Source: a virus (taxonomy: Duplodnaviria; Caudoviricetes). From it: a stretch of 64,000 nt of DNA. A program made the translations under genes and the position numbers. Under the pieces are notes generated by a model. It was given only the letters and a program-made list of their open reading frames with translations, did no database searches and was not told where the DNA came from. Where the stretch lies: IMG/VR virus record IMGVR_UViG_3300009082_000959. The stretch is one strand, 5' to 3'. Shown here in pieces: positions 12,628-43,309 of this stretch; the first letter of the stretch is position 1, and every line of letters starts with the position of its first letter.

Positions 12628-14502
12628 ATGTCAGCAAACAAGTTATTTACAACGGCAGAACAATGGTTTGAAGACCTAAAAAAAGAAGTCTTAAAGATAG
12701 ACCCAGTGTCGTTTGCTGAAAACTATCTTGTCGTAGACGGAAAACCACTAAAACTTGGCGGCGGGACCGGCTGGAAATACCTTACTGATATTTACAGGTA
12801 CATGGCAACGAAAGCCATGGAAGAAGATGGGAAACCCGTAGTATGTGTTAAGGGTCGTCAGGTAGGCGCAACAACTGCCGCCACTGCACTTGAACTTTTT
12901 TTTTGCACCAGCGGGCTATACGGAACATCTCCAAATAAACCACCAATAAGACTTCTTCATTGTTTTCCTGCACTAGCTCTTGTGCAAAAATTCGCAAAAG
13001 ATAAATTAAGTACAATGATGAGAACATCAAAGGATAATTATATCCTTAATCATTCTCTTGGCTACGACGCTGAATCAAAGAAAAAGAGAATTGATGTTCC
13101 AGAAGATACTCTCACAGAAAAACAATTCACCAATGAAAATAGGCTTTGGGTTGATTCCAACGCCAATGATGCTCAAAGACTTCATGGTATGTCTTTGGAT
13201 GGTATTTTCTATGATGAGGTTCAGAGAATGAACCAAGATGACATAGGAAATAGCAAAAGAACCCTAACATCTGCTCGATATGGGCCCCGCGGACAAGGAA
13301 TCCAGATGTATTTTGGCACTCCTTTGCAGCGCGGTTCAAATTTTCACAAAATGTGGGAATCCTCTGACAAAAGATATTATCATCTTGGGTGTGAAAATTG
13401 TGGTCATTATTTTATGCTATATTCTCCTGGGAATGATGATTGGGAGAAAATATGGCTATATGCTAATGTTGTGGCTTGTCCAAAGTGTCACCACGAACAG
13501 GATAAAGTTGATGCAATAGAGCGCGGTAAATGGATTCCAATGCAACCAGTTCTGCCAGACGGAAAGGAACCACAGTATGTTGGATTTCATTTTAATCAAT
13601 TGCTGATACCAAATTTTCATAAAGAAACGGTCATTAAAGAAAAACCAGGAATACATCCAACAAACTCAGAGCGCATTTGGCAAAACGAAATATTAGGAGA
13701 GTTTTACAGTGGTGAAGATTTGCCAATGTCGGAAGAAGAAATATATAAGTATTGTAGAGATATAGACAGAAGCATTTCATTTGGAGGCCCAGGCACATCC
13801 ATAAAAAGAGTGCAAAGCAACAAGATTTATTCTTCGAGTAAAATTCCCACTTTTTTGGGCATCGACTGGGGTGGTAAAATAGACGATCCAAATTCCAAGA
13901 TAGGAAAATCGTTTTCTTGTATGGCAATTATATCTGTTGATAAGGATGCGGTAGTGAGAATAGAGAATGCATTTAAACTAAAAAAGAATGATTTGCAACA
14001 CAAAAAAGATGTAGTAAGGGAAATGTTCAGAAGATTTGATATCAATTGCGCTGTCGCAGACTTAGGTCATGGTAATGATATAGTTCCAGAGCTTCAGGGG
14101 GAATTTGGAAACAGGTTAATAGGAAGCATAAGCAGTGGTAGTCTAACTAATCCAACGAAATATGACCCAGAGGAACTAAGACTGATTATAAATCATCACG
14201 TATTACTGGAAGATTTATTCGCGCATATGAGAAAGGGTAAAGTATTATTTCCATGGAAAAGTTATGAGCAAATTCAGTGGCTTATAGAGCACTGCTGTTC
14301 AATGGAAAAAGAAATACACACAGTTCAGGGTCGAGTCATATCAAGATTTGTAAAGGGTACCGGACCCAACGACGGTCTTATGGCTCTCCTATATGCCTAT
14401 TTGGCGTATAAATTTTATCTAACGCAAGGGTTTACGATAAAGGCCCACCAACTAAATGCAAAAAGTGCCGGACCAATATTGGCTTATTTGCCAAGTTTTT
14501 AA
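12628..14502 (+). CDS. Terminase large subunit (lambda gpA-like)
   Basis: Walker A VCVKGRQVGATT, Walker B IFYDEV, coupling motif FGTP, CENC/CPKC zinc site, GFHFNQL, nuclease FLGIDWG. Confidence 0.9.
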   Translation: MSANKLFTTAEQWFEDLKKEVLKIDPVSFAENYLVVDGKPLKLGGGTGWKYLTDIYRYMATKAMEEDGKPVVCVKGRQVGATTAATALELFFCTSGLYGTSPNKPPIRLLHCFPALALVQKFAKDKLSTMMRTSKDNYILNHSLGYDAESKKKRIDVPEDTLTEKQFTNENRLWVDSNANDAQRLHGMSLDGIFYDEVQRMNQDDIGNSKRTLTSARYGPRGQGIQMYFGTPLQRGSNFHKMWESSDKRYYHLGCENCGHYFMLYSPGNDDWEKIWLYANVVACPKCHHEQDKVDAIERGKWIPMQPVLPDGKEPQYVGFHFNQLLIPNFHKETVIKEKPGIHPTNSERIWQNEILGEFYSGEDLPMSEEEIYKYCRDIDRSISFGGPGTSIKRVQSNKIYSSSKIPTFLGIDWGGKIDDPNSKIGKSFSCMAIISVDKDAVVRIENAFKLKKNDLQHKKDVVREMFRRFDINCAVADLGHGNDIVPELQGEFGNRLIGSISSGSLTNPTKYDPEELRLIINHHVLLEDLFAHMRKGKVLFPWKSYEQIQWLIEHCCSMEKEIHTVQGRVISRFVKGTGPNDGLMALLYAYLAYKFYLTQGFTIKAHQLNAKSAGPILAYLPSF

Positions 14503-15192: not shown

Positions 15193-18100
15193 ATGGAAAT
15201 ACGAAGAGGTCCATGGAAACCTGCTACAACCAATAAAGTAGCAACAGTAAAATCCAGTAGGTTCGGTGCGCGTCCAGCAACTGTTCTTAGTCCTGGTGTA
15301 TCAAATTCAGAGCACCATTTGGCTAATCGGCAGGCAGATACTGGCGCTATTCCCGAAAAAGTGTCAGAGTTTAGACAGGCAGAAATAATTAGAGCGACAG
15401 GATCCTCAAACAACCAAATCAAAGAGTCGCCTGCTCCATTATTATTATATAGTAATTCGTTCAAAAAATCTCAAGAAATAAAAGAAAATTTCCTGAGAAA
15501 AAGTGCCGCGTCTGTGACTTCTGGTGGATATAGTTCTGCTGGCGGCGGAACAACCATACAGGCACCAGAAATATATTCTCCACTATTTCAAATTGCAAAC
15601 CTACAGCTTCCGCGCGAAAGAATAACAATGAATGCGTGGAATAGAAATTTTTATGATACACATCCATTGGTTCACAACTGCATTAATTTGCACGCAACTT
15701 ATCCAATTAATAAAATAAACATTAAGTGCAAAGATGGCAAAATAGAACAATTTTTTAAGGATATGGCAGAGAACATAGACTTAATAGGTGTTTTGCAGGG
15801 AATGGCACTTGAGATTTTTAAGATTGGTGAGTGTTTCCCCTATGCCGAGTTGGATGAAAGAACTGGTGCTTGGAAAAGTATCGTAATTCAAAACCCAGAC
15901 TACATCCACATAAAAACATCTGTATTGGGAGGTGATCCAGTAATATCACTATCACCAGATGCGGCACTAAAACGATTGGTTCAAAGTAATAATCCAGCAG
16001 ACATACAATTAAGAAGCCAAATAGACGATGAAATTCTATATCACATTCGTAAGGGAAACAACATTCCTTTGGATAATTTTCACATAAGTCATTTGGCCCT
16101 TAAATCAGCTCCCTACGATGTGCATGGAACATCTCCAATAGTTACTGTCTACAAAGATCTTATGCTGTATGACAAACTTAGGGAGTGTTATTCTTCCGAT
16201 ACAGAAGTTTTGACTGATTCTGGTTTTATGAATGGTCTTGAATTGTCATTAAAGTATAAGAACAGTAATCAAAGCGATTTGCCATCTATTGCTTGTTTTA
16301 ATTCAGAAACAGAGATGGTTGAGCATCATAAACCAATAAAAACACATATATCAGAATATAATGGAAATATGTATAGGTTTAAGGGTAAAAAAGTAGATAT
16401 TCTCGTTACACCAGAGCATCGTATGTGGGTCAATAAGAACAAAAAGACTGGTTGGTCTGGATGGCATTTTGAACAAGCAAAGGATGTTAGCCCGTCCTAC
16501 TGGTACAAGTTTAGATGCCACGCAAAATACAATGAAGGCGAAAAGGTTGAATTTATTGATGTTCTTGGTAAAAAAATACCATCGGAACTTTACATGAAGG
16601 TTTTGGGACACATAATTTCGGAAGGATGTGTTTATCAAAGTTATAAAAACGGAAGATATGATAATAATGTTTCTATATGTCAAAATATAGAATCTAAATA
16701 TCAACAAAATATGAGAAATAATTTTAAGCAGTTTGCTGAATTATTGGGGAAAAATCTCGTAGAAAATACTAAGGTGGTTGGGTCTGGGTTTAGTGCACAT
16801 TCTCCAAAAAATAAGTGGGAAGCATTAGTGAGTGGTAAGGATTTAGTAAATTACTTCAAAAAAGAAATTGGAACAAATGATGTTTGTAATTCCGGAACCA
16901 AAAGAATTCCTAGGTGGATATTTGGACTACATTCTGATTTGTTAAAGTGTTTGTTGGAATCATTAATGGAGGGCGACGGGCATTTTTCAAGTAGTTTGTA
17001 TAATACAACATCAAAAGGCTTTCGTTATGACACTGGCTCAAAACAACTAGCAGATGATGTATATGAGTTAGTCTATCGCCTTGGATTTGTTCCGTTATTG
17101 CGAACAGTAGATAGGACTGGAGAAAATACTGGGAAAAATTTATTAGAATACTCTGTCTCTTGGTCAAACACACATTATGGCCGTGAGCCGCGTGTGTATG
17201 GAAAATCAGATTCAAAGCATCACGGTGCCCATATTGGTCAAACAGATTATGATGGTTTAGTTTGGTGCTTCGAAGTTCCTACTGGATTATTTATAACACG
17301 CAGAAATGGCAAAATAACTATTCAGGGAAACTCTAAATATGCACAGGCTGATAGCCTTGTAAATCCAATTACACTAATAAAAGTTGGTGGGGCTGGAGAA
17401 GGAGAATACAAAGCAACCGGTGATGACTTGGAGAAATGGCGTCAAATAATGGAGTGTCATGATGAAGAGACCGAGGTATTGACTGACCACGGTTTTAAGA
17501 AGTTTTTTGATGCAATTGATTACACAAGGAGCGATGATGTTGCTGTTTACACTGCATCACCAAAGACTGGAATAAAAATAGCTTGTTTTAATAATGATAC
17601 AAAACAACTTGAGTATCATATTCCATCCAGAGCTACTTTATATGATTATTCTGGAGAAATGTATCATTTCAGTGGCGGAAAATTAGATATCAAAGTTACA
17701 CCCAATCACAGAATGCTTGTTACAAGAAAACTAAAGAAAGGTTGGTCTAATAGTGAGATAATTACTGCTGAAAACCTTTCACTGGGGACACACTATAGGT
17801 TTAGGTCAGTCGCAAAATTCAACGGTGAAGAAAAAGAATCAATTAATGTTTGTGGGAAAAGTATAAAAACTGATGATTATTTGGAATTTTTGGGAAATGT
17901 TATAAGTGAGGGATATGTTTGTAAGATAAATGACAAGTATTATAATAGCATAACATTATATCAAGAAAATTGTTCTCCAGAAAAAAATAGTATGGAAACC
18001 AATTTAGAAAAAATAGCAAATTGTTTTGGGAAAACCATACAATCAAAAACAATTGATAATAGCCATACTCCATTTTCCGGCACAAATACAAGCACGATGT

Positions 18101-19422
18101 GGCGAGGAATTCTGTGCTCATCTGTTTTAACCAAACATTTGTTTGAAGAAATAGGTGAAAACGGAAAATGTAATTCGCACAACAAACGCATTCCAAGGTG
18201 GATTTATTCTCTATCTACACGACAAATGAAAATACTTATTAATTCTCTTGTCGCAGGAGATGGAACAAAATACACAAGTAAAACTGGTAAGAGTGGATTT
18301 AAATATAGTACAATATCTGAAAATTTGGCAAAAGACCTACATGAATTAGTGTTTTTGGCCGGGTTTGCTCCAAAAGTATATAAAACAAAGAATGGTCAAG
18401 GAAAAGACTATTGGCTTGTTACCTGGACTGAGAGTGGCAAGGGATCATTCCCGCATTTCGGTGGAGTATCAAATAAAAGAGAACAACAACTCACTAAAGA
18501 GCAATATAATGGTAAGGTTTGGTGCTTTACTGTTCCAACAGGATTATTTGTCACCAGACGAAACGGTTTAATTACAATTCAGGGTAATAGCGCTGAGTAT
18601 GATAAAAACTTTAAGATAATTACTCATGCAGGCGTTACGGTTGAAAGAGTTGGTGCTAATGGATCAATATTAGATATAAACCCAGACATGCAGGCTATTT
18701 TAGATAATATTTTGTACGGTCTTATGGTTCCAAAAGCGGTAGTGACACAGGAAGGTTCGTCTTTCAACAGCGCAACTGTTGGTCTAGAAGTTCTTAGGCA
18801 GCGCTACGAGGCTTTTAGGAACATGATGTCGCAGTGGCTCATTAAAAAGATATTTGCTCCAATCAGCGAAATACAAGAATTTTATGAGTATAAAGATGGG
18901 GATAAAAAACTTATTGTCCCAGACATTGAGTGGAATAGAATGATATTGTTTGATATGGATAACTATATCAGTGTATTAAACGGATTGGTCAAAGAAAAAG
19001 CAGTATCCAAGACTACACTTTTTAGAAGCCTTGGTCTAAACATCGATGAAGAGAATAGACTTCGTAAGGAAGAACTAATAAAAGAAGCTATAATAGGAAA
19101 AGAAACAGCTATTCTAAATTCAATGACTCTTGGTGCCTTGCGCTCACTAAAGGCAGAGGACGATATAATAGAACCAACAGACCAGGTTTCTCTACCTGGG
19201 ACACCTGGTTCAGAGGAATCAGGAATACCTGGAATGACTCCTCCTGGCGCCGGCGGATTAGGCGGTGGGGGTCTTGGTGGCTCTCCAATGCCTCCAATGG
19301 GCGGACTTGGCGGCGGCCTAGGTGAGCTTCCAACAGAGGGCCTTGGCGGCCCTGAAGCTCCTGCGGGCGGTGGAGAAACACCTCAAAGCCCAACGCCAGC
19401 ACCTACATCACCAACACAATAA
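15193..19422 (+). CDS. Portal protein precursor containing two inteins (spliced product ~649 aa)
   Basis: Follows TerL; exteins FYDTHPLVHNCINLHATYPI, GECFPY, PYDVHGTSPI resemble phage portal; Gly/Pro-rich C-tail; 1409-382-378=649 aa. Confidence 0.8.
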   Translation: MEIRRGPWKPATTNKVATVKSSRFGARPATVLSPGVSNSEHHLANRQADTGAIPEKVSEFRQAEIIRATGSSNNQIKESPAPLLLYSNSFKKSQEIKENFLRKSAASVTSGGYSSAGGGTTIQAPEIYSPLFQIANLQLPRERITMNAWNRNFYDTHPLVHNCINLHATYPINKINIKCKDGKIEQFFKDMAENIDLIGVLQGMALEIFKIGECFPYAELDERTGAWKSIVIQNPDYIHIKTSVLGGDPVISLSPDAALKRLVQSNNPADIQLRSQIDDEILYHIRKGNNIPLDNFHISHLALKSAPYDVHGTSPIVTVYKDLMLYDKLRECYSSDTEVLTDSGFMNGLELSLKYKNSNQSDLPSIACFNSETEMVEHHKPIKTHISEYNGNMYRFKGKKVDILVTPEHRMWVNKNKKTGWSGWHFEQAKDVSPSYWYKFRCHAKYNEGEKVEFIDVLGKKIPSELYMKVLGHIISEGCVYQSYKNGRYDNNVSICQNIESKYQQNMRNNFKQFAELLGKNLVENTKVVGSGFSAHSPKNKWEALVSGKDLVNYFKKEIGTNDVCNSGTKRIPRWIFGLHSDLLKCLLESLMEGDGHFSSSLYNTTSKGFRYDTGSKQLADDVYELVYRLGFVPLLRTVDRTGENTGKNLLEYSVSWSNTHYGREPRVYGKSDSKHHGAHIGQTDYDGLVWCFEVPTGLFITRRNGKITIQGNSKYAQADSLVNPITLIKVGGAGEGEYKATGDDLEKWRQIMECHDEETEVLTDHGFKKFFDAIDYTRSDDVAVYTASPKTGIKIACFNNDTKQLEYHIPSRATLYDYSGEMYHFSGGKLDIKVTPNHRMLVTRKLKKGWSNSEIITAENLSLGTHYRFRSVAKFNGEEKESINVCGKSIKTDDYLEFLGNVISEGYVCKINDKYYNSITLYQENCSPEKNSMETNLEKIANCFGKTIQSKTIDNSHTPFSGTNTSTMWRGILCSSVLTKHLFEEIGENGKCNSHNKRIPRWIYSLSTRQMKILINSLVAGDGTKYTSKTGKSGFKYSTISENLAKDLHELVFLAGFAPKVYKTKNGQGKDYWLVTWTESGKGSFPHFGGVSNKREQQLTKEQYNGKVWCFTVPTGLFVTRRNGLITIQGNSAEYDKNFKIITHAGVTVERVGANGSILDINPDMQAILDNILYGLMVPKAVVTQEGSSFNSATVGLEVLRQRYEAFRNMMSQWLIKKIFAPISEIQEFYEYKDGDKKLIVPDIEWNRMILFDMDNYISVLNGLVKEKAVSKTTLFRSLGLNIDEENRLRKEELIKEAIIGKETAILNSMTLGALRSLKAEDDIIEPTDQVSLPGTPGSEESGIPGMTPPGAGGLGGGGLGGSPMPPMGGLGGGLGELPTEGLGGPEAPAGGGETPQSPTPAPTSPTQ
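16186..17331 (+). mobile_element. Intein 1 in portal (382 aa, LAGLIDADG)
   Basis: Starts CYSSDTEVLT, block B LVTPEHRM, endonuclease helices LGHIISEG/LMEGDG, ends ITIQGN followed by Ser. Confidence 0.92.
17455..18588 (+). mobile_element. Intein 2 in portal (378 aa, LAGLIDADG)
   Basis: Starts CHDEETEVLT, block B VTPNHRM, LGNVISEG/LVAGDG, ends ITIQGN followed by Ser. Confidence 0.92.
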
Positions 19423-20466: not shown

Positions 20467-23400
20467 ATGCTATTCAATAATTTTAAAATTTTATCAAAAC
20501 GCGCCAAAGTTGTCAGTGATAAACCTGCATACAAAGACAAACAAGAAAGTGACAGCGGGAACACAATTTATCACTATGACGAAAAACATTTATCAAAACG
20601 CTGGCAACACAAGCGAGATAAGGTAAAAAATCTCGAAAAAAATGTAAAGAAAATACGAGAACAATATGAGAAGGATTTAAGTTCAGATGATCCCAGAACA
20701 CGCGCTATTGCTGCTGTTGTTGGTGTTATAGATGATACGGCCGCGCGCGTTGGAAATCCTGACTCTATTAAAGATCATGACACATATGGTATAACTACGC
20801 TAAAACTAAAGCACATTTCGTTTAGCGGCGGCAAAGCAAAACTAAAATTCCCAGGAAAAGACAATGTTAATCAAGACCTTACTGTTGATAATAAGAAAGT
20901 CATTAAGGTCTTAAAAGAACTTACCAAAGACAAGAAAAAAGATGATTTCCTTTTTGAGGTTGATGGGAAAAGAATTTGGGACCGTGCTATCAATAGATAT
21001 TTGTCTCCCTTTAAGATTAGTGCAAAGGATTTGCGCGGTTTCCATGCCAATCGTTTAATGAAAGAGTTACTGAAGAAAAAAGACTTTGACGAGGCTTTAG
21101 AGGAAACGGCCTCCATTGTGGGTCATGAAAAAGCAACGCTCAAAAATCAATACCTTTTACCCGAATTAGTCGAAAAATACGAAGGCAAAAAGAAAGATGC
21201 TAGCATAATGCGTTTATCAAAACGCGCTGAACTCACACCAGAAGACTTGGCTTGGGTTAATAGCATTAAGGGTTTGACTGCTGATGTTCCTTCTGCGCCA
21301 GCAACACAAACAGGTGGCGTAAAAATAAACAGTTTAATACTAGCTGCTTGGCAAACTTTATTACCATTTTTGCCAAAGGGTTCTGTGATTACTTCCGGAG
21401 AAAGAACGGCAGATGATCAAAAACGAATCCTGGAACACTATTGGCAAAAAGCAACTGGCCAAAAAATACCAGATAAACTTAAAGCCAATGATAGCGTATG
21501 GTTCCAAGTATCTAAGTCTCTTAAAGAGGACTATGGTTATATAGTTGGACCTCCGAAAACAAATGATCCTTATTCTCACTTGAACGGAAGAGCACTTGAT
21601 GTTTCTGGTGCAAACTTAAATCAAATTGCCAATATAGCGGCTTCTGTATCAAACAACCCAAAATTACCAGTAAAATTTAGAAAACCAGTAATAGAGAAGC
21701 AAAACAATTGTGTTCATCTGGGAATAGAGAACGCAGAATATAATCCTGCGGCAATTAAAGAAGTATTAAGTAGCGGATTGGGAGTTACTGCATCTATATC
21801 TGTGCGTGCAAATAAATTTTTGGATGAAATGGGTTTTGGTCTTGAAACAGAACAGGGTGATTTATTTGAGAAATCACCAATATTCAGGCATTATGATGGC
21901 TACCAAACATACAAAATTCATGATATTAGCGAAACAGAAGCTAGCAAATTAGCAAAGAGTGAACCAGACGAATTCTTTTATCGCGGACTACACAAAGAAT
22001 ACGCTAATCTTGTTCCTGGTGCTTTACGTAGCATGATACAATCGAATGCAAAATTTTTCTTTGTATTTGATTATCACAAAGATGAAAAATATTCAGACTT
22101 GTTAATTTTGGCCGCCGAACTATTATCTCAACAGGACCCTAGGGCATTTTTCTATTTCGGCCTACATAAAAAGTTTCCAGAATTAGGCAGAGGTGCTGTT
22201 GTTCAGTTGATTGATACCAATCCGGACTCATTTTTCGATCTTGGTCTGGAAAAAGAATACAGCGATTTAGAGGGAAGTGCTGGTGCTGCCAGAAACATAA
22301 AAGACCCAAATAAAATTGAAATAGAAAAAGATTCTAATTTGAATAAAGCAGCAGAGGAAGACGACGAAGAAAAAAAGAAATTAGAGGAATATTTGAAACT
22401 TCGAGAAAAATATAAGCGATTATTTAAAGACAGAGACTATAAAGAGTTTCCACCAGAGGACCGCAAAAAGGAATTTTGGAAGCATCAATTTAATCCAAAG
22501 GAAATTGGTAGTTTTCCTAGTTTCTGGGAATATCCAAAAGAAGAAGACCCGGATCGTGAGGAAAAAGAAGAAGACCTTAAAAAAAGACGCAAACAGTACT
22601 GGCAGCACCAATTAAGTCCCACCCGGTGGCTTGGCTATGGCGCTATTCCTTTTTGGAAATATCCGAAGAGTTCTGTGATGCCAGTGCTATCAAAACGCGC
22701 AGAAGTCAATGACGTTGCTGGCGTATTTGCAGTATTGCCAAAAGAAATAGCAAAACAATTTAAGTCTCTTGGTGACCACGACAACAGTGATCCACACATA
22801 ACTGTGATTTTTTGCGGTAAAGTAAAAAAGAAAGATAGAAAGTTGCTGGAAGAAACTGTCAGAGGAGTAATAGAAAACTGGAAGCCCTTTAAAGCAGAAT
22901 TAGATAGCAAGGTCACTTATTTTCCTGCAACCAAAAATTCAGATGGCTGTAAAATAGCTAAAATGAGTGTGAAATCCAAAGAACTTCACAGACTGCACAA
23001 AGAATTAAAAGAAGCGATTGAAAGCGCCGGAATAGAAATCGATGATACATTTCCTGATTACAAACCACACGTGACATTGGAATATTTAGAAAAAGGTGCA
23101 ACAAAATACGAAGACGAAGTTCCGGAAGGCTCTTGGGAAATAGATTGTGTAGAAATTTGGGGAATTGGTAAAAATAGAAAAATTAAATTTGACAAGCACG
23201 AGAAGAAAGCGTGTCTATCAAAACGGGCATCATTCACAGAAGAAGAGGCGAAGGAACTGGCCGAAAAAGGTTCTGATACTTTTTTTTACTATCACCTACA
23301 GGAAACCTACCCACATCTCGCAGAACAGGCGGCGCGTAATCTAGCAAAAGTATCAGCATTTGATTTTTTTTATTACAGACTACACGAAACATACCCACAT

Positions 23401-26400
23401 CTTATAGAATACACAGTACAAAAGTTGGTAGAAGAGAATCCCAAAATGTTCTTTTTTCGTGGTTTTCACAAAACATATCCACATCTTACAGAACAAGCCG
23501 CCAAAAACCTAGTAGAAGAGGATTCTGGATATTTCTTTAGTTATGGACTACAGGAAACATTTCCACATCTTACAGAACAAGCCGCCAAAAGCCTAGCAGA
23601 AAAGGATCCTGATACTTTGTTTTTTAGGAAACTAGATAAAATTTATCCACAATTAGGTGAGTTGGCAGCCAAAAACCTAGCAGAAAATAAACCTGCCGAT
23701 TTCTTTTACTTCAAGCTGCATAAAACCTACCCACAAATAGGAGAACAGGTGGCCAAATACCTGGCAGAAAATAATATTAGTACATTCTTTCATTACAATT
23801 TACAAGAAATCTACCCAAAACAGGGCGAGCTACTATCAAAAAATCTAGCAGAAAAGGATCCTGATACTTTCTTTCGCAGGGAATTACACAAAATTTATCC
23901 GCAACTAGGTGAATTGGCAGCAAAGAGTACGGCAGAAGAGGATCCAAAAAAGTTCTTTCTTTTTGGATTACACAAAACCTATACACACTTTGCAGAATTG
24001 GCAGCAAAAGGCATTGCGGAAATCATTCCTGGTTATTTCTTTGATACTGAATTACATAAAATATACCCACAGTTATCAGAACAGGCTGCCGAAAATTTGG
24101 CGAAAGAAAATATTGTGTCCTTCTTTTATCGCAAAATACACGAAACCTATCCACATATCGCAGAACAAGCTGCCAAAAACCTAGCAGAAAATGATGAGGG
24201 AGAATTCTTTAAATTAAATTTGCAAAAAACTTATCCACAGTTTGCGGAACAACCAATAACAAATAGATTAAAAGCACAGAAACAATTTGATTACGAAAAT
24301 CCCGATCACAGAAATAGACCTCTTAAAGCAAAACAATTAGCCAGTAAAATGTATAATCAGGGATATAAAACCTACATACACACTAATGATTTAGATGATT
24401 TGGATGGAATCGGCAGTATTCCTGGGGAAATTTGTGTAAGTTCTTGGGACTTATCCAGAAAACTGTTTTCCTCAAGCCCAATGACTTACGCTGCAATTTT
24501 TGAGGGAAGACCTTCACATTTCTTTAATCAAGATGCTTGGTCTGACGTAGGTCAGGATGGCCTACGATTTTTGACAAGTATTGGGAGAGATAGGGACTTT
24601 TACGAAATGGATGAAAACCATGACGAAGCTTGGTTTAATCCACTAGCACCAGGAAACAAATTAGTTGGCTTTGCTTTAGTGGGAATACCGAAAGATCAAG
24701 AAACATATCAAGATGGAAAGAAAAAACTACAAAAACTGGCGGAGAAAAACGGAGTAGCGTATTTGGAGTTTGGAGAAAATCCTTGGGACTTGAAAAAAAT
24801 CAGAGAAAAACCTTTAATGAAAGAATATGAAAAACCAAACCCAATGATCAGCAAATATAAAAATCTACCAGAAATGAGAGACTACGCTAAACTGAAACTA
24901 TCAAAACGTGCCGAAGAGGAAACAACAATACAACTTACCGACAAAGAAAAACAAATCTTTGATGTTTTGCTTGAAACAATAAAGCATTTTAATTTAAAAT
25001 CCACCATTAGAGTTGCCGGCGGTTGGGCTAGAGATAAAATACTTGGGAAAAATAGTAAAGACATAGATATAGCAATTGATAATATGTCTGGTAAGCAGTT
25101 TGCCGAAAAAGTATTGCTATTTGCTCGCACGAAAAACATTCCAGTAAAATCAGTTGGAGTAATAGAGGCCAGACCAGAACAATCAAAACATCTCGAAACA
25201 GCTGTGGTTAATTTACTAGGCGAGAGTATAGACTTTGTAAATTTGCGCGCAGAAAAATATGATCCAGAAACCAGAATTCCAACGGCAGTTCCTGGAACTG
25301 CTCTTGAGGACTCATATCGTAGAGACTTGACCATTAATAGTTTATTTTACAATATTAATACTGGGAAAATAGAAGATTTGACCGGCAAAGGTATAGATGA
25401 TTTAAAAAATAAAATAATAAGAACGCCAGTTCCGCCGAAGGAAATTTGGTCACAGGTTGGAATTACAGACGAATCACAAGCAATTACTCCAAAGAAAACC
25501 TTTATGGATGACCCACTTCGTGTTCTTCGTGCAATTAGGTTTGCCTCAAGATACGGATTTTCTTTGGCACCAGAATTAATGGAAGCAGCAAAGGACCCCG
25601 AAGTTCAGGAATCATTTAAAAACAAAATATCTAGAGAGCGCATCGAGGCAGAATTAAGAAAAATGATAACTGGTCCAAATCCTGTTTGGGCTCTAAATTT
25701 AATAAACGAGTTGGGTTTTAGGTCTGAAGTATTAAAACTCCCAGAACAAACAAACTGGAAAACCGGTGATGAAGATATTTGGGGAAACATAATTCAAACA
25801 CTGGATAATTTACAAAGTATAATAAAAGAAAGAAATTTGGGTGAAGCAGACAAGTTCGTTATTAATTTTGCGGCATTCTTGCATGATGTTGGCCTACTTG
25901 ATCCAAAAAACCAAGACGCGAAAAAATTGGAGAAATCCATTGGACGATCTGAATCCAGCGTCGTAGTCGCAGAACATGTATTACGAAATTTGCCAGGCGT
26001 AAGGGTTGATGAAATAGAAAGAGTAAAGAAACTAATAGATGCCACCAAACTAATAGAAAACCAAAAACACGATTTGTCTGCTATTACACGAAAACAATTG
26101 GGTAATTTTGTTAGAGCAATAGGAGACGATTGGGAAAATGCAGTTGATATTTTGGCTGCACGAAACAAGGCCAACGAAGGATTTAGTCCAGAGTATTACA
26201 GTGGAATTAAAAAACAGGTAAAGGATTTTGGTCTTGAAAAAGCCCACACAATGAAACCGCTTTTGACTGGCGAAGAATTAATGAAATTGTTTGAAAGAAA
26301 GGGCGGAAAGTGGATGGGAGACCTAAATAGAGAACTAATTCAATGGCAGTTAGAAAATCCAAACGCAACGAAGGATGATGCAATTGTCGCAGCAAAAGAC

Positions 26401-28275
26401 ATTTATGGTAAGTTTGGGTTAGATAAAAAATCATCTCTTGGCCGTTTGTCTAAATTGGCTAGTGCTGGTTTTTCAGATAAAGATGTAATTGATTTATACA
26501 AATTTATGTATTTGCGAAACCAATTAGAAAGAAGAGGAGACCCGGAAAGCGATAGTTATATTGAGTATTTAGATGAAACTATGAATGATAAACTAAAGCA
26601 TATTTTTTATGTCCTGTCGACGGTATTTGAAAAATGGCTAAAAAGACATCGAGCTATGTTTGGTGATTTAAATAATCTAGAGAATTTTGAAACCGCCGTT
26701 GCATGGTATGTTGGTAATTTAATGGATCATGTGCATGAAAAAGACATCAACAAGGCGGAGCAATACTTACCACAGTCTCGTGATGAGGTTTTAAAGTGGA
26801 AAAATACATTTAATACAATACACGAAATATACGAAAATCTTGCAAAAGGTCCATCCAGAGACATGAATAGTAATTTCTCTATAATAAGTCGCGCAATTGG
26901 GGCATCACATATCCATGGTGATATGTTGTCGTATATTAAAGAAACAGTCGATGATCCAAACCAACAAATTACGCCAGAATTAATGTCTCAATTGACTTCT
27001 GGAAAACACGAAGATTTTAAAGAGTGGAACAAAGAACTGCGAAGAATTGGTTGTAAAAAATTACACTTATCGAAGAGAGCGTCTGTTTCTGAAGAAGAAG
27101 CAAAAGACCTAGCAGAAAAAGATCCAGATAGTTTCTTTATAGACAAACTACACAAAATATACCCCAAACTTGGTGGGTTAGCTGCAAAGAATTTAGCAGA
27201 AAAAGATCCTAATAAATTCTTTTCTAGATCACTACATATAACCTACCCACATCTTGAGGAATTAGCAGCCAAAAACCTATCAGAAAATGATCATTATAGT
27301 TTTTTTTATAATGGATTACACGAAATTTATCCGCAACTAGGTGAGCAAGCTGCCAAAAACCTAGCAGAAAATGATTTTCATGAGTTCCTTGCTTTTGGGT
27401 TACACAAAATCTATCCCCAAACCGCAGTTCAAGCAGCAAAAAATCTGTCAGAAAAAGATCCAGAAAATTTCTTTTATTTCGAACTACAGCAAATCTATCC
27501 ACAATTCGGGGCCCTGGCGGCCAAAAAGATAGCAGAAGATGATGCAGAGAAATTCTTTAAATTAAATTTGCAAAAAACTTACCCACAGTTTTCAGAACAA
27601 CTCATAAAAAACAGACTAAAAGCACAGAAACAATTTGACGAGGAAAATCCAAATCGCAAAAATAGGCCACTTAAAGCAAAGCAATTGGCTAATGAAATGT
27701 ATAATCATGGATATAAAACCTACATACACACTAATCACCTAGAAGATTTAGACGGAATTGGTAGTATTCCTGGGGAAATTTGTGTAAGTTCTTGGGATTT
27801 GTCTCGTAAGCTTTTTTCTGCAAACCCAATGACTTATGCTGCTATTTTTGAGGGGAAGCCTTCACACTTTTTTAATCAAGATGTTTATTCTAATATAGGC
27901 AAAGATGGCTTGCGGGTTTTGACAGACACCATGCGTGATGACACCTCTATTTACGAAATGGATGAAAACCATGACGAAGCTTGGTTTAATCCACTTACTC
28001 CGGGAAACAAACTGGTTGGTTTTGCTTTAGTGGGAATACCAAAAGACGAAAAAGAATACCAAGAAGCCAAGAAACAGCTACAAAAACTAGCGGAGAAAAA
28101 TGGAGTATCTTTCCTAGAATTTGGTGAAAGTCCCTGGGACTTGAAAAAAATCAGAGAAAAACCTTTGATGAAAGAATATGAAAAACCAAACCCAATGATC
28201 AGCAAATATAAAAATCTACCAGAAATGAGAGACTACGCTAAACTGAAACTATCAAAACGAACCAACATTGGTTGA
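20467..28275 (+). CDS. 2602-aa multi-enzyme protein (probable polyprotein) segmented by LSKRA motifs
   Basis: One uninterrupted ORF; six exact LSKRA plus ISVRA, LNKAA, LSKLA and LSKRT fall at domain boundaries. Confidence 0.9.
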   Translation: MLFNNFKILSKRAKVVSDKPAYKDKQESDSGNTIYHYDEKHLSKRWQHKRDKVKNLEKNVKKIREQYEKDLSSDDPRTRAIAAVVGVIDDTAARVGNPDSIKDHDTYGITTLKLKHISFSGGKAKLKFPGKDNVNQDLTVDNKKVIKVLKELTKDKKKDDFLFEVDGKRIWDRAINRYLSPFKISAKDLRGFHANRLMKELLKKKDFDEALEETASIVGHEKATLKNQYLLPELVEKYEGKKKDASIMRLSKRAELTPEDLAWVNSIKGLTADVPSAPATQTGGVKINSLILAAWQTLLPFLPKGSVITSGERTADDQKRILEHYWQKATGQKIPDKLKANDSVWFQVSKSLKEDYGYIVGPPKTNDPYSHLNGRALDVSGANLNQIANIAASVSNNPKLPVKFRKPVIEKQNNCVHLGIENAEYNPAAIKEVLSSGLGVTASISVRANKFLDEMGFGLETEQGDLFEKSPIFRHYDGYQTYKIHDISETEASKLAKSEPDEFFYRGLHKEYANLVPGALRSMIQSNAKFFFVFDYHKDEKYSDLLILAAELLSQQDPRAFFYFGLHKKFPELGRGAVVQLIDTNPDSFFDLGLEKEYSDLEGSAGAARNIKDPNKIEIEKDSNLNKAAEEDDEEKKKLEEYLKLREKYKRLFKDRDYKEFPPEDRKKEFWKHQFNPKEIGSFPSFWEYPKEEDPDREEKEEDLKKRRKQYWQHQLSPTRWLGYGAIPFWKYPKSSVMPVLSKRAEVNDVAGVFAVLPKEIAKQFKSLGDHDNSDPHITVIFCGKVKKKDRKLLEETVRGVIENWKPFKAELDSKVTYFPATKNSDGCKIAKMSVKSKELHRLHKELKEAIESAGIEIDDTFPDYKPHVTLEYLEKGATKYEDEVPEGSWEIDCVEIWGIGKNRKIKFDKHEKKACLSKRASFTEEEAKELAEKGSDTFFYYHLQETYPHLAEQAARNLAKVSAFDFFYYRLHETYPHLIEYTVQKLVEENPKMFFFRGFHKTYPHLTEQAAKNLVEEDSGYFFSYGLQETFPHLTEQAAKSLAEKDPDTLFFRKLDKIYPQLGELAAKNLAENKPADFFYFKLHKTYPQIGEQVAKYLAENNISTFFHYNLQEIYPKQGELLSKNLAEKDPDTFFRRELHKIYPQLGELAAKSTAEEDPKKFFLFGLHKTYTHFAELAAKGIAEIIPGYFFDTELHKIYPQLSEQAAENLAKENIVSFFYRKIHETYPHIAEQAAKNLAENDEGEFFKLNLQKTYPQFAEQPITNRLKAQKQFDYENPDHRNRPLKAKQLASKMYNQGYKTYIHTNDLDDLDGIGSIPGEICVSSWDLSRKLFSSSPMTYAAIFEGRPSHFFNQDAWSDVGQDGLRFLTSIGRDRDFYEMDENHDEAWFNPLAPGNKLVGFALVGIPKDQETYQDGKKKLQKLAEKNGVAYLEFGENPWDLKKIREKPLMKEYEKPNPMISKYKNLPEMRDYAKLKLSKRAEEETTIQLTDKEKQIFDVLLETIKHFNLKSTIRVAGGWARDKILGKNSKDIDIAIDNMSGKQFAEKVLLFARTKNIPVKSVGVIEARPEQSKHLETAVVNLLGESIDFVNLRAEKYDPETRIPTAVPGTALEDSYRRDLTINSLFYNINTGKIEDLTGKGIDDLKNKIIRTPVPPKEIWSQVGITDESQAITPKKTFMDDPLRVLRAIRFASRYGFSLAPELMEAAKDPEVQESFKNKISRERIEAELRKMITGPNPVWALNLINELGFRSEVLKLPEQTNWKTGDEDIWGNIIQTLDNLQSIIKERNLGEADKFVINFAAFLHDVGLLDPKNQDAKKLEKSIGRSESSVVVAEHVLRNLPGVRVDEIERVKKLIDATKLIENQKHDLSAITRKQLGNFVRAIGDDWENAVDILAARNKANEGFSPEYYSGIKKQVKDFGLEKAHTMKPLLTGEELMKLFERKGGKWMGDLNRELIQWQLENPNATKDDAIVAAKDIYGKFGLDKKSSLGRLSKLASAGFSDKDVIDLYKFMYLRNQLERRGDPESDSYIEYLDETMNDKLKHIFYVLSTVFEKWLKRHRAMFGDLNNLENFETAVAWYVGNLMDHVHEKDINKAEQYLPQSRDEVLKWKNTFNTIHEIYENLAKGPSRDMNSNFSIISRAIGASHIHGDMLSYIKETVDDPNQQITPELMSQLTSGKHEDFKEWNKELRRIGCKKLHLSKRASVSEEEAKDLAEKDPDSFFIDKLHKIYPKLGGLAAKNLAEKDPNKFFSRSLHITYPHLEELAAKNLSENDHYSFFYNGLHEIYPQLGEQAAKNLAENDFHEFLAFGLHKIYPQTAVQAAKNLSEKDPENFFYFELQQIYPQFGALAAKKIAEDDAEKFFKLNLQKTYPQFSEQLIKNRLKAQKQFDEENPNRKNRPLKAKQLANEMYNHGYKTYIHTNHLEDLDGIGSIPGEICVSSWDLSRKLFSANPMTYAAIFEGKPSHFFNQDVYSNIGKDGLRVLTDTMRDDTSIYEMDENHDEAWFNPLTPGNKLVGFALVGIPKDEKEYQEAKKQLQKLAEKNGVSFLEFGESPWDLKKIREKPLMKEYEKPNPMISKYKNLPEMRDYAKLKLSKRTNIG
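20506..21213 (+). other. Polyprotein module: DNA topoisomerase IB catalytic domain
   Basis: ARVGN, TYGITTL, FPGK, AKDLR, VGH, NQYL: the R-K-R-H-Y catalytic set is present. Confidence 0.9.
21229..21795 (+). other. Polyprotein module: peptidase M15-type Zn peptidoglycan hydrolase
   Basis: ITSGERTADDQ, YSHLNGRALDV (SxHxxGxAxD) and CVHLG supply the H/D/H ligands. Confidence 0.75.
22702..23214 (+). other. Polyprotein module: 2H phosphoesterase (2'-5' RNA ligase/LigT-like)
   Basis: Two HxT motifs: DPHITV and YKPHVTL. Confidence 0.88.
23257..24264 (+). repeat. 12 tandem 84-nt (28-aa) repeats, consensus LAEKDPDxFFxxxLHKxYPQLGEQAAKN
   Basis: Counted directly in the translation; 12x84=1008 nt ends exactly at ...PITN. 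Confidence 0.9.
24265..24897 (+). other. Polyprotein module: unknown enzyme-like domain, copy A (possibly ADP-ribosyltransferase fold)
   Basis: YIHT...EICVSSW...NHDEAWF spacing resembles the ART H/R-S-E triad; fold call is weak. Confidence 0.35.
24913..26445 (+). other. cca: Polyprotein module: CCA-adding tRNA nucleotidyltransferase with HD-like segment
   Basis: RVAGGWARDKILG, KDIDIA, DFVNLRAEKY, EDSYRRDLTIN, DDPLRVLRAIRFA, KISRERI, FLHDVG. Confidence 0.92.
27109..27612 (+). repeat. 6 tandem 84-nt (28-aa) repeats of the same family as 23257..24264
   Basis: Counted in the translation; 6x84=504 nt. Confidence 0.9.
27613..28248 (+). other. Polyprotein module: unknown enzyme-like domain, copy B (duplicate of 24265..24897)
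   Basis: High amino-acid and nucleotide identity to copy A; the last ~125 nt differ at one position by my reading. Confidence 0.8.
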
Positions 28276-28319
28276 AATATACTAATAAAATCACATTTAT
28301 CAGTAGAAGGAGAGAGTTT

Positions 28320-35063: not shown

Positions 35064-35732
35064 ATGGAAAAGAAGTGCAAGAGATGTAATGAAACAAAGA
35101 CCGAGGAATGTTTTTATCTCAATAAAAAAACATTAAAACGCGCAAATATATGTATTGCTTGTGACAAGAAGAGATTAAAGGAATATAGAATCAAAAACAA
35201 GGACAAGTTGTCTGCGCGGACGAAAGAGTGGCAAAAACAAAACCCAGAAAAAGCAAAAAAGAATAGGGACAATTGGGCAAGAAAACACAAAGAAAAAGTA
35301 AATGCAAAAAGCAAGCGGTGGAAGGATAAGAATAAAAAACATTCATTAGAATATAATAGTGCTGTATATGCCAGTAGAAAACATGATCCAATGTATATGC
35401 TTCCTAGAAATTTGAGGACTAGACTATATCAGGCAATTAAACATAATTTTAAGTCTGGCTCAGCAGTGGCGAGTCTTGGTTGTTCTATAAAGAGTTTTAA
35501 AAAATATATGGAATCTAAATTTTATGATAATAAAAAAACAAAAATGAAGATGTCTTGGGATAACTATGGCAAAAATGGCTGGCACATTGATCACATTATC
35601 CCTTTGGCAAGTTTTGATTTAAGTGACGCTAGTCAGCTTGCAATAGCATGTCACTATACTAATTTACAACCGTTGTGGGCAGAAGAAAATTTTAAAAAGG
35701 GCAATAGAGTTGAGGAGATCAAAAATGTTTAA
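35064..35732 (+). mobile_element. HNH homing endonuclease (paralog 4)
   Basis: WHIDHIIPLASFDL...ACHYTNLQPLWAEENFKKGN. Confidence 0.85.
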
Positions 35733-38700
35733 AAAACTTGGAGAAAATTTTGATTTTTCTTCATCCAGTTTGCTTGAACCAAAACAAGCACTACAAGACA
35801 CGGAAATTGCTGCACGTTTTGTTAAAATGGCAAAAAAGTTACGTCGAATTGCGCCAAAGGCTAAAGATTTCGTGTACGGAGATGCCATTATTATGCACTC
35901 GGCCGAGGCTTCGTTGATCGACTTGAATACAGGAAAACCAATATTAAACAAAAATGGAGAGCCGGTTCAGGGATGTTTTGAGGACTTTATAAACAAAAAA
36001 GGCGTAAAATCTGTTAGATGGATTTCAAAAGATGGTATTAAGCCATATAAAAATAAAAACGGTGATATTTTCAGTGAAGCAGAGTTGTTAAAAGCATACA
36101 AAAAATGGATAGGTAAGCCTCTGTGTAAAGATCATATCTCTGATTCGGTTGATGGTATTCGAGGAATAATCATTGATACATATTATGATAGTAAATTCAA
36201 GAGGGTACGCGCTCTTTTTGCCTTAGACCGCAAAAACTACGGTGACTTGGCTCGTAAAGTTGAGTCTGGTTATGCTACAGCGGTTTCCATGGGCACTGCG
36301 GTTGGTAGAGCGGTTTGCACAGAATGCGGAAATGTTGCAGTTACCGAGAAAGAGTACTGCAATTGTATTCGTTCCCACGCAAACTATGGCGAAATAAACC
36401 TGGACCTAAGCCCACTAGAACTATCTCTCGTTGTTAATGGTGCTGATGGACTCGCTCATGTTAGAAATGTCATCGCTTCTATGAATAATTATGTAGAAAC
36501 TAAACAGGCACGAATTTGCGAGTTGGTTAATGATAGATGCGTTAATCCAACAGAACTACAGAGTATAGCCGATTCTCTCTCGGATATGCAAACCAAAATA
36601 AGTGGATTACTTGGTCTTACGAAAAAAGCAGATCTCGGAGAAGATGTCGCTGCTTTAAGGGAAATTTCAAAAATGGAAGAGTCCCTCAATGATCCAGAAA
36701 AATCAGAAGAGACCAAGGAAAAACTTAAAAAACGAATCCATGATCTTGAAATACAACTTGATCGCGCTGGTGAAGAACAAAAACAAGAAAAAACTTGGCC
36801 ACCAGTTAGACCAGGACCAGTTCCTTCATTGCCAAGTTCTATGGACGGTGATGCAAGCGATTTAGGCAAACCAAGCACAACTACTTTCAATGGATTTGCC
36901 GAACCAAACCTACGATATGCGAGTTTAGAAGGAGACAAACAGGGTGCTTTGTCAGTTGAATTAGGTCTCCTTCGATCCAAAATAGATAAAATGCAAGACA
37001 GTTTGAATGTATTGAATACAAAAGTCTCTAAGGAGGAGAATATTATGAATTCTGCTAGATTACGTGCGCGTGCTAAGGCACGAAGGGCTTATTGGCTTGG
37101 CGGTGGTGGTATCAATGAACCAACACCTGGACAACCAAAGTATGAGAAAGATCCTATGGCCGAGAAAGTGCGAGATAGTGAAGATAAGCAAATGGTGGGA
37201 GAACCACTTGAAACTGGATCCGAAGGCTTGCACCCTGGTGATGAAGAGAAATTGAGAGACGCTGGTCGCAATGGTCTAAACCTAAGTAAGGCCGAACTCA
37301 AAGAACGCGCTTTAAAGCGTCGTGGTTATTTCCAAGGTGGCGGCGGCATTAATGAACCAACACCTGGGCAGCCAAAGTATGAGAAAGATCCTATGGCCGA
37401 GAATGTTCGTGACAAGGAAGATAAGCAGTTGGAGACCTATGACATGGGCGGGACCGATGGAACCGTTCCTGGTGATATGGAAATAAAGAAAACACTATTG
37501 CGTGCCAAGTTGCGCGCAAAGTTTGTTAAGGTTGCTGATAGAACCGGTGGAATCAATAAGGCTGCTTCTCGTTGGGAAGTTTATGCTGGCGATAAGATGA
37601 TTCTTACTGCTACCGGCAAAGAAATCTTTGATGACCAGCTCGAAGGTAGTTGGGATTATCTAAGTTCAAGAGATTACGGCAAAGATGTTATCGCTGCAAT
37701 TAGGTCTGACGGTTTTGATCGTGTTGCCTACTTGCTTAAGGGCGCAGCCGATCCAATGCCTGCCGATCCGTTGGCAGGAGATCCTTTGGCTGGTCTTCCA
37801 GCCGCTGCTCCAGCTCCGGATGCGGCTCCACCAGCCGCAGAAGCACCTGCTGAGCCAAAGAAAGAAGAGGGCGGGGTTAAAGAGAAGGTAGATTCTGCTC
37901 TCGGCGAAATGGAGGAAGCAATTGAGTCAGTTAGATCCGCCGTTACAGAGGGTGGCGAAAAGTTGGTTGATATAGAGGTAAAGGTTGATGAGGATGCAAA
38001 GGGTGAAGGCAAAGATTCAACCCCAGTTGCTGCCCTTACTGCCGCTGAAAGAAGCGAGTTAATGGAATTGCATGCGTTGCTAAATGAATCAGCAGACGAA
38101 TTGGCCCTAATAAGTGAAGCACTAGAGTCAAATAAGTCAGACCGCAGGGTTGTTAATGCCGCTTACCAGGCTCTTTCTGATGCTCAAATTATCCTAGAGG
38201 CCAAGAAAAAGAAGGTGAAGGACGACGAAGAGGAAGACAAGGAAGATGGTAAGGGTTTCTTTGGCAAAAAGGACAAGAAGGACGAAGACAAGGACGACAA
38301 GAAAGATAAGAAGGACGAGGATAAAGACGACAAGAAGGAAGATAAGGACGAGAAGAAAGATAAGAAGGATGCGAAAAAGGACAAGAAGGACGAAGACAAG
38401 GAAGATGAGAAGGAATCAAAGGCACAGAAGTTGCTAAATGACGCTCTTCGCGTTCGTTCTGAAAACCGCGCCGCATTGCTGTCAAAGATGGCAGAGCCCG
38501 AATTAAAAGACATGGTTAAGGAAAAGGTTAATACAGAAATTAAGAAGGAGTTAGAGGGCGGATTGCCAGCCGATGATGCAATGCTAGATGACAGTGGGTG
38601 TCTTGGTTGCACAGATGACGTTGTAGAAAGCGATGAATCTGCAAAGCTGGCTCGACGGAAGGCTCGTGAAGAATTGGTTGCTAATGCCGCCAAGAGTCTT

Positions 38701-43297: not shown

Positions 43298-43309
43298 TTG
43301 GAGACAACA

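Follow-up and report, generated by a model that had tools for sequence, protein, structure and literature searches.

Where did the CCA-adding enzyme of eukaryotes come from, and what would an enzyme that closely resembles it be doing in the DNA of a tailed phage? Both questions are raised by a stretch of 64,000 nucleotides of phage DNA from the IMG/VR record IMGVR_UViG_3300009082_000959, called the window in what follows. Positions 24913-26445 of its plus strand encode a module of 511 residues (P0001), one part of a much longer polyprotein, which has the sequence of a CCA-adding tRNA nucleotidyltransferase. The division of these enzymes into an e-type and an a-type is established (PMC4538823), and the origin of the e-type enzyme of eukaryotes (eCCA) has been described as unresolved in a 2026 preprint that noted the lack of any progenitor identified before it and did not consider viruses (10.64898/2026.05.29.728689). 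The original prediction, made from the letters of the window, held that the module looks like the plant and fungal CCA1 and not like a typical bacterial Cca, and that it has a bearing on where the eukaryotic enzyme arose or on transfer between domains; with phages absent from that study, such a bearing is a reasonable one to draw. Taken as a whole, the best explanation, and one we consider likely to be right, is that the module belongs to the e-type (eCCA-like) lineage of class II tRNA nucleotidyltransferases and that its bearer is a huge tailed phage of a prokaryote that uses Shine-Dalgarno (SD) sequences.

The evidence begins with the sequence itself. The module matches the PolyA_pol family of Pfam (PF01743) at 88.3 bits against a cut-off of 23, which makes it a member of the class II tRNA nucleotidyltransferase family. 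When it was compared by phmmer with the proteins of the PDB, the enzyme of Arabidopsis thaliana (9kma) was found at 1.4e-86 and cca2 and cca1 of Schizosaccharomyces pombe at 3.6e-66 and 7.1e-64, as against 4.9e-16 for the enzyme of Thermotoga maritima and 4.4e-6 for human TRNT1. So close a likeness to the plant and fungal enzymes lies well outside what chance would give. Over its full length the module is 35-44% identical to eukaryotic eCCA and 23-28% identical to bacterial enzymes, the nearest of them at 25-28%. The predicted fold leads to the same plant enzyme: an AlphaFold2 (AF2) model of the module, with a pLDDT of 92.9, has 9kma as its best Foldseek match (TM 0.79, E 3.8e-29), and every other structure of a CCA-adding enzyme or poly(A) polymerase (PAP), bacterial or human, lies between 4e-15 and 7e-9.

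The motifs agree with both. All catalytic core motifs from A to E are present (GGWARD...DIDIA, RRDLTIN, IEDLTGKGIDDL, DDPLRVLRAIRF and ISRERIEAELRKM), and their key residues are invariant in an alignment of 50 sequences; D50 and D52 of motif A are invariant in alignments A1 and A2, and in the region of motif D the invariant residues are D200, P201, L202, R203, R206 and R209. The flexible loop deserves particular attention here, as its deletion marks the bacterial CC-adding enzymes, and its e-type consensus is Yxxx(x)SRxP (PMC7014341). In the module the loop is of full length (YDPETRIP) and is preceded by R-A-E as the B/A motif, but it has a Thr in place of the consensus Ser; most of the module's closest phage and metagenome relatives, the clade A described below, have SRIP. 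A regular-expression scan of the module with published definitions (PMC7014341, 10.64898/2026.05.29.728689) found no PAP signature, no a-type loop (DGRbAxV) and no A-adding motif. An a-type identity, of the holozoan and alphaproteobacterial kind, was rejected on the missing DGR.A.V and on the match to TRNT1 at 4.4e-6, against 1.4e-86 for the plant enzyme.

The strings quoted in the original prediction are all found in frame +1 of 24913-26445 (IQLTDKEKQIFDVLL, RVAGGWARDKILG, KDIDIAIDNMSG, PEQSKHLETA, DFVNLRAEKY, RIP, RRDLTINSLFYN and KISRERI), and its view of the module as eukaryotic-type, not a typical bacterial Cca, PcnB or a-type enzyme, is borne out by sequence, motifs and fold alike. The hallmarks of plant and fungal CCA1 that it named have a wider distribution than it supposed. 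Five motifs, namely PxQSKHLETA, IDFVNLRxExY, DIDIAxDNMxG, an N-terminal LTxxExxIF helix and INSLFYN, are indeed present in eukaryotes and absent in Bacteroidota, Actinomycetota and E. coli Cca, but they are equally common to the viral clades A to F.

The position of the module was examined in a maximum-likelihood tree of 113 rows and 496 columns (LG+C20+F+G4 with posterior mean site frequencies, PMSF), in which support is given as paired values. The rows comprise the window, 17 members of clade A, 10 of clade B, 5 basal metagenomic sequences, 28 eukaryotes, 29 further metagenomic or IMG/VR sequences, 20 from bacteria, with E. coli Cca and PcnB among them, and 3 ordinary phage CCA-adding enzymes; the labelled eukaryotes are plants, fungi, Paramecium, Andalucia, Paratrimastix, Pygsuia, Aphanomyces and glaucophytes. 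The module pairs with the polyprotein P0123 (100/96), on a terminal branch of 0.36 compared with 0.096 for its sister. Both belong to clade A, which consists of phage and metagenome sequences only (100/100) and is sister (99/95) to a group made of clade B and the eukaryotes (100/95). The eukaryotes form a clade of their own (94/97), which includes a contig of a protist group (L134, which carries actin, ASF1 and TFIIIC) and its kin. Huge-phage clades D, E and F from IMG/VR branch outside the group of clade A, clade B and eukaryotes; the node that unites clades A, B, D, E and F3 with the eukaryotes has a support of 100/99, and 94/93 once L105 and L107 are added. The nearest cellular prokaryotes are Bacteroidota with Calditrichota, and Actinomycetota, and all cellular prokaryotes sampled fall outside this supergroup, while the ordinary phage enzymes L113 and L116 group with E. 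coli Cca. The same groups are recovered under LG+G4, and a second tree of the N-terminal catalytic core alone (267 columns) again gives clade A (100/99) and the node of A, B, D, E and F3 with the eukaryotes (100/99).

The supergroup is thus made up of eukaryotic eCCA and several virus-borne clades, with clade A inside it, and the module is a member of this wider eCCA-like assemblage without being nested in the eukaryotic clade. Approximately unbiased (AU) tests rejected a tree in which clade A was constrained with the bacteria (difference in log-likelihood 109, p 0.0022), and also one in which all viral clades formed a single group away from the eukaryotes (107, p 0.0047). A firm place in a bacterial clade, the one outcome that the original prediction had named as fatal to itself, is what the first of these tests speaks against. 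Its label of yeast or plant CCA1 holds as far as the e-type goes, but the module sits in a phage and metagenome clade that is sister to eukaryotes plus clade B.

The label does not fit the tail of the protein. As indicated in the motif table, the H...HD...HE...D residues of the HD domain are kept in Bacteroidota, Actinomycetota and the viral clades A to F, and are absent in all 32 eukaryotic rows. An origin of the viral genes from crown eukaryotes would therefore require these residues to have been regained. Because the relatives of the module carry an intact HD domain of bacterial style, which the eukaryotes sampled lack, the module is better described as eCCA-like with a prokaryotic tail than as yeast or plant CCA1. 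Clade A as a whole retains the HD motifs; the window copy keeps LHD but has lost most of the rest on its own: the HD profile (PF01966) gives 17.2 bits against a cut-off of 22 and the H...HD...H...D pattern is broken, compared with 20.2-27.2 bits in four polyprotein relatives, two of which reach the 22-bit cut-off. The HD domain of E. coli Cca has phosphatase and 2',3'-cyclic phosphodiesterase activities, which are used in tRNA end repair. The degenerate domain of the window copy is probably unable to open 2',3'-cyclic phosphate ends.

The comparison with the known enzymes can be drawn together as follows. The module shares the class II fold with the eukaryotic enzymes (the At1g22660 product of A. 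thaliana, 9kma; Cca1 of Saccharomyces cerevisiae; cca1 and cca2 of S. pombe), together with motifs A to E, the B/A motif, a flexible loop that is e-type but for a Thr in place of Ser, the N-terminal helix, PxQSKHLETA and IDFVNLRxExY. It differs from them in 18 extra residues between motifs C and D, in its place outside their clade and in a clade that keeps the HD motifs they lack, and in being an internal part of a phage polyprotein with no organelle-targeting extension. With the bacterial HD-bearing enzymes (those of E. coli, NF008137, of actinobacteria, TIGR02692, and of Bacteroidota) the phage clade shares the order of head, neck and body/tail with a C-terminal HD domain; the module is set apart from them by low identity, scores below the NCBIfam cut-offs, the e-type motifs and its degenerate HD domain.

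That the DNA is phage DNA can be read from the genes around the module. The window encodes a terminase large subunit and is therefore from a tailed phage. All long open reading frames (ORFs) of the window lie on the plus strand, and 30 of 57 starts have an SD-like motif before them, where the background is 10.6%, so that the host should be a prokaryote that uses SD sequences. The GC content of the module (37.0%) is that of the window (37.8%). A chimeric assembly or eukaryotic contamination was considered and rejected, as the module is in frame within the polyprotein and flanked by a phage junction motif; its phage-like GC and its recurrence in four related phage contigs also counter that idea. 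A search for tRNA genes in the 64-kb window found none.

The wider set of relatives points in the same direction. In a search of 5.8 billion proteins, of which the best 120 matches were examined, the best 35 or so are metagenomic proteins of 38-52% identity, except for a plant fusion protein that ranks there by bit score and one protein from a metagenome-assembled genome (MAG) labelled 'Promethearchaeota'. Many of them are fusion proteins with a 2H, HD, LigD-type or ligase domain, and plants come next at 35-40%. All named matches among the best 120 are eukaryotes, bar the 'Promethearchaeota' protein and a 'marine sediment metagenome' fragment. A search of representative sequences adds the polyproteins P0123 (1697 aa, 68% identical overall and 77% in the N-terminal core) and P0127 (2589 aa), and IMG/VR contains 38 related loci. 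Four of these (L099, L084, which is P0127, L085 and L086) have a terminase large subunit 70-76% identical to that of the window and polyproteins with TopoIB and CCA-HD modules; they belong to the same huge-phage lineage, for which the CheckV completeness implies genomes of about 400 kb. In the phage genomes deposited in GenBank, matches that span most of the query reach 28% identity at best, and those to its N-terminal half 33%; the module therefore has no cultured relative. Large phages are known to include CCA-adding enzymes among their translation-related genes (Al-Shayeb et al. 2020, PMC7162821). The known phage tRNA nucleotidyltransferases, including those of Acinetobacter phage ABPH49 and the Lak phages, are likewise phage-encoded, but they group with the ordinary bacterial types; in the open-access literature we found no report of an e-type affinity of phage enzymes or of an e-type phage clade.

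Cellular prokaryotes offer little by comparison. No match above 35% identity was found among 185,579 prokaryote species, each represented by one genome, and just two loci exceed 30% over most of the query, on MAG contigs of 2-5 kb: L004:2987-4510 in a Polyangia MAG (JBNLED010000166.1, 4.9 kb, GC 65.8%) and L005 in a Verrucomicrobia MAG (2 kb). Both MAGs also carry an ordinary CCA gene elsewhere. The high-GC Polyangia copy, a member of clade D with an intact HD domain, could be a real cellular copy or a prophage one. The next-best prokaryote matches, in Bacteroidota and Actinomycetota, have a local identity of 24-33%. In the ESM Atlas, HD-bearing clusters made up mostly of viruses (Uroviricota) score 0.96, as do clusters from bacteria (Absconditibacteriota, Acidobacteriota), which does not discriminate between them, and the lead to Absconditibacteriota found no support in the scan of prokaryote species.

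The 'Promethearchaeota' protein (P0010) requires a word of caution. It is a class II, e-type enzyme, present both as an NCBI MAG protein and at L001:10001-11539 on a JGI contig of 177,110 bp (3300041085 Ga0452209_000086). The content of that contig is phage-like, with aminoacyl-tRNA synthetase, NAD salvage, RNA ligase and kinase genes and many small ORFs on one strand, and the closest sister of P0010 lies on a 481-kb contig (L003). The contig has probably been mis-binned as Asgard. Phage contigs binned into MAGs can be mistaken for class II CCA genes of archaea, which is relevant to surveys of archaea.

Other members of the supergroup come from large virus-like contigs as well. Clade B, in the full-length tree the nearest non-eukaryotic sister of eCCA, consists of CCA-HD-2H-SAK fusions (L131:10001-11941 and L133:10001-12061) on contigs of 143-159 kb, which also carry PARP, Ro60/TROVE, SET, histone deacetylase and PIF1-like genes. 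A 351-kb huge phage (L105, IMGVR_UViG_3300045988_162489) has a deep-branching e-type-like enzyme of a very abundant metagenomic family, whose clusters number more than 120 (57-93% identity; hundreds of members in some) and come from contigs of up to about 390 kb; the large protein search with this enzyme returned metagenome proteins of its own family only and no named cellular neighbour. Among the five IMG/VR records of clades D to F that are at least 90% complete, three match Terminase_6N and none matches a capsid of the nucleocytoplasmic large DNA viruses (NCLDV). No NCLDV capsid was found in ten IMG/VR records either, a weak negative, as the capsid family was also silent in 14 control genomes. 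A 394-kb record of clade F3, complete by CheckV, has a terminase match and no NCLDV capsid. All non-eukaryotic members of the supergroup with a readable context look viral.

The features of the window that bear on the module and its surroundings are collected in the table.

Table. Positions and supporting matches of features in the 64,000-nucleotide window
Feature	Position	Strand	Remarks
Terminase large subunit	12628..14502	+	gpA-type; phrog_675 1.2e-57; GpA_ATPase 1e-16
Portal with intein/LAGLIDADG inserts	15193..19422	+	phrog_16240 9.3e-43; LAGLIDADG_3, Intein_splicing; two short genes upstream of polyprotein
Polyprotein ORF	20467..28275	+	2602 aa; holds the CCA module as aa 1483-1993; Pfam and ORF call
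2H phosphoesterase module	22702..23214	+	PF13563 1.3e-13, LigT_PEase 2.6e-9, Acb1 3.8e-7
LSKRA junction motif	24898..24912	+	abuts CCA module upstream; six-frame motif scan
CCA module	24913..26445	+	511 aa, open frame; head and neck, then helical body/tail with degenerate HD
Motif A, GGWARD...DIDIA	25003..25077	+	catalytic D50 and D52 of module; both invariant in alignments
B/A motif R-A-E with flexible loop YDPETRIP (e-type but for Thr in place of Ser)	25243..25281	+	regular expression Yxxx(x)[ST]RxP, residue 116
Motif B, RRDLTINSLFYN	25318..25353	+	R136, R137, D138, T140, N142 invariant
Motif D, DDPLRVLRAIRF	25507..25542	+	nucleotide-templating (E/D)DxxR; regular expression, residue 199
Degenerate HD region	25741..26200	+	PHH...H deleted; LHDVG kept without Lys; GHE changed to GRSE; AD changed to AAR
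LSKLA junction motif	26446..26460	+	abuts CCA module downstream; six-frame motif scan
1229-aa ORF with head-maturation-protease-like stretch, aa 115-223	35710..39399	+	phrog_18299 1.1e-11; candidate LSKRA-cutting enzyme

The polyprotein is a chain of modules, of which Pfam recognises TopoIB (aa 47-240), a 2H/LigT/Acb1-like phosphoesterase (aa 769-883) and the PolyA_pol head of the CCA module (aa 1515-1652); further modules have no assigned family. A cassette of repeats of about 28 aa with an unassigned C-terminal domain (domain X) occurs in two copies, at about 23215-24897 and about 27067-28263. The motif LSKRA is found six times, together with LSKLA and LSKRT, each time at a border between recognisable modules, and three more times in the nearby head-gene ORFs 43298-45508 and 45527-47332. 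In the relatives L099, L085, P0126 and P0125 an [LI]SKRA-type motif stands at the same place upstream of the CCA module, with variant junctions (ISKHA, ISKRL) in P0123 and P0127; downstream of it the relatives have LSKRA, ISKRA or a variant. Their polyproteins join TopoIB and CCA-HD with 2H, LigD 3'-phosphoesterase or LigD prim-pol modules, and from one related phage contig to another these and further modules are reshuffled. The motif pattern, its conservation and the protease-like gene nearby make this junction-flanked polyprotein a candidate for virion cargo processed by a protease. It resembles the internal proteins and Alt of T4 (with gp21), the inner-body proteins of phiKZ (with gp175) and the 'polyvalent proteins' of phages in its place next to the portal and head genes, in the number of unrelated enzyme modules on a single chain, in a junction motif that is short and recurs, and in having a gene for a head protease close by. 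It differs from them in its [LI]SKRA junction and in a cargo set of TopoIB, 2H and CCA.

It is worth describing what such a cargo might do. The head maturation protease would cleave the polyprotein at LSKRA, and the modules would travel inside the capsid and leave it together with the DNA on ejection. Once freed, the CCA enzyme could rebuild the 3'-CCA of host tRNAs damaged by nucleases or defence systems of the host or through the normal turnover of their ends, and the 2H module of the same polyprotein may open 2',3'-cyclic phosphate ends, thus taking over the job of the decayed HD domain. A role in RNA-end repair is suggested by the repeated occurrence, in these clades, of fusions between a CCA enzyme and 2H-SAK, LigT, LigD 3'-phosphoesterase or ligase domains, as assigned by Pfam.

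Some of the neighbouring genes have features of their own. The ORF with the protease-like stretch is far longer than typical head maturation proteases and has a local GC of 0.43-0.44 against a window mean of about 0.38; its length and raised GC suggest insertions, for example of inteins. Four paralogous endonuclease VII/HNH-like genes (phrog_1035, phrog_28061) lie among the head genes, at 14515-15180, 19432-20187, 34220-35062 and 35064-35732, and are probably homing endonucleases. Directly after the polyprotein, at 28272-29000, there is a gene for a Dps-like, starvation-inducible DNA-binding protein (phrog_3636, phrog_858), which bears a helical tag L-x-x-L-A-x-x-L-D-x-x-G that recurs in the small ORFs after it.

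How else could the module have come to look like the enzyme of eukaryotes? It might be an ordinary bacterial Cca or PcnB taken from the host, its eukaryotic look being due to convergence or chance. The best NCBIfam model is in fact the actinobacterial tRNA_CCA_actino (TIGR02692), which aligns over the full length; it scores 122.7 bits, however, where 438.8 would be required, and the other bacterial models also stay far short of theirs (57.6 of 451 for NF008137, the E. coli-type Cca; 85.4 of 290 for NF009814; 69.1 of 305.65 for PcnB, the poly(A) polymerase I). With the low bacterial identity, the AU test that separates clade A from the bacteria and the missing PAP signature, this explanation has been tested and rejected, and we give it almost no credence. 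Capture of the gene by a phage ancestor from a plant, fungus or protist, with later spread among phages, would account for plants being the best named matches and A. thaliana the best solved structure, but it is very unlikely: the module stands outside the eukaryotic clade (94/97), its identity to any eukaryote is only 35-44%, its relatives keep HD motifs that no sampled eukaryote has, its GC equals that of the phage, and the use of SD sequences by the phage makes its host a prokaryote. For HD-bearing phage enzymes and an HD-less eukaryotic one, a common ancestor with an e-type head and an HD tail is most likely, and in that case the phage genes would not be captures from modern eukaryotes.

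Which way the gene travelled from such an ancestor is a further matter. A bacterial lineage now unsampled, extinct or replaced, for instance a relative of Bacteroidota or the hosts of these phages, may have passed the e-type enzyme to phages and eukaryotes alike, so that the phages are a reservoir and not the donor. This is quite possible, if somewhat short of probable. The cellular prokaryotes closest in the tree, Bacteroidota with Calditrichota, and Actinomycetota, have the same HD-bearing architecture; a link of eCCA to Heimdallarchaeaceae and to Bacteroidota, Chlorobiota and Rhodothermota, with weak direct similarity only, has been proposed, and its bacterial signal fits (10.64898/2026.05.29.728689); and the clade D member on the Polyangia contig could be cellular. 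Against it, no e-type copy was found on a long contig among the prokaryote species genomes scanned, the two MAGs with matches have ordinary CCA genes of their own, and the readable contexts of the non-eukaryotic members look viral throughout. [quoted passage not shown] In its favour are the nesting of eukaryotes among viral clades in the full-length tree (99/95, 100/95), the rejection of a single viral clade (AU p 0.0047), the position of clade F3 outside the eukaryotes in the full-length and core-only trees (100/99), and HD motifs present in all viral clades and bacteria but in no eukaryote. Fast-evolving viral sequences, however, are prone to attraction towards outgroups, the catalytic core by itself gives a weak internal order, and the root comes from distant outgroups with 48/73 at the base; a viral donor is accordingly unlikely in our estimate.

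The preferred reading, an e-type enzyme in a huge phage, is itself open to objections. The tree set is without the Heimdallarchaeaceae 'Heim12', Chlorobiota and Rhodothermota, the kin of eCCA proposed in the study cited above; the AU tests were run under LG+G4 and not under the mixture model, on groups named after the tree had been seen; and in the core-only tree the internal order is weak, with clade A joined to B and D (85/77) and the eukaryotes forming a weak grade. The clade B contigs are virus-like, be it of phages or of other viruses. The Thr in the flexible loop might restrict the enzyme to CC- or A-addition, the window copy could be under relaxed constraint, given its degenerate HD domain and longer terminal branch, and the enzyme activity, the cutting at LSKRA and the packaging are all inferred. 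It is conceivable, then, that the module is no longer a full CCA-adder, and that it is a decaying passenger, a partial CC- or A-adder, or an enzyme retargeted to other RNA 3' ends such as those of phage tRNAs or defence RNAs. The HD motifs have been lost in the window copy only, its branch is longer than its sister's, its loop has Thr where the consensus has Ser, and small changes in the loop restrict the activity of the S. pombe e-type enzymes (PMC7014341). All invariant residues of the head are kept, however, the N-terminal core is closer to P0123 than the protein is overall, and the frame stays open over 511 codons with a confident AF2 model; we consider such a loss of function unlikely.

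With the module read as an e-type enzyme of a huge phage, its meaning reaches beyond this one window. The enzyme eCCA is an essential translation factor, and phages now become candidates in the question of its origin, since a broad radiation of huge-phage enzymes is nearer to eCCA (35-44% identity) than is any sampled bacterial enzyme (25-28%) and has all the e-type motifs. The phage enzymes with a prokaryotic HD domain are a concrete intermediate form that must enter any test of the origin of eCCA. If a virus was indeed the donor, the huge-phage clades, this polyprotein module included, would be surviving relatives of the donor lineage, and an essential part of translation would have reached the pre-LECA lineage through a virus and not directly from a bacterium or an Asgard archaeon. 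For the phage itself, the module may exemplify a translation-repair enzyme that is delivered ready-made from the capsid.

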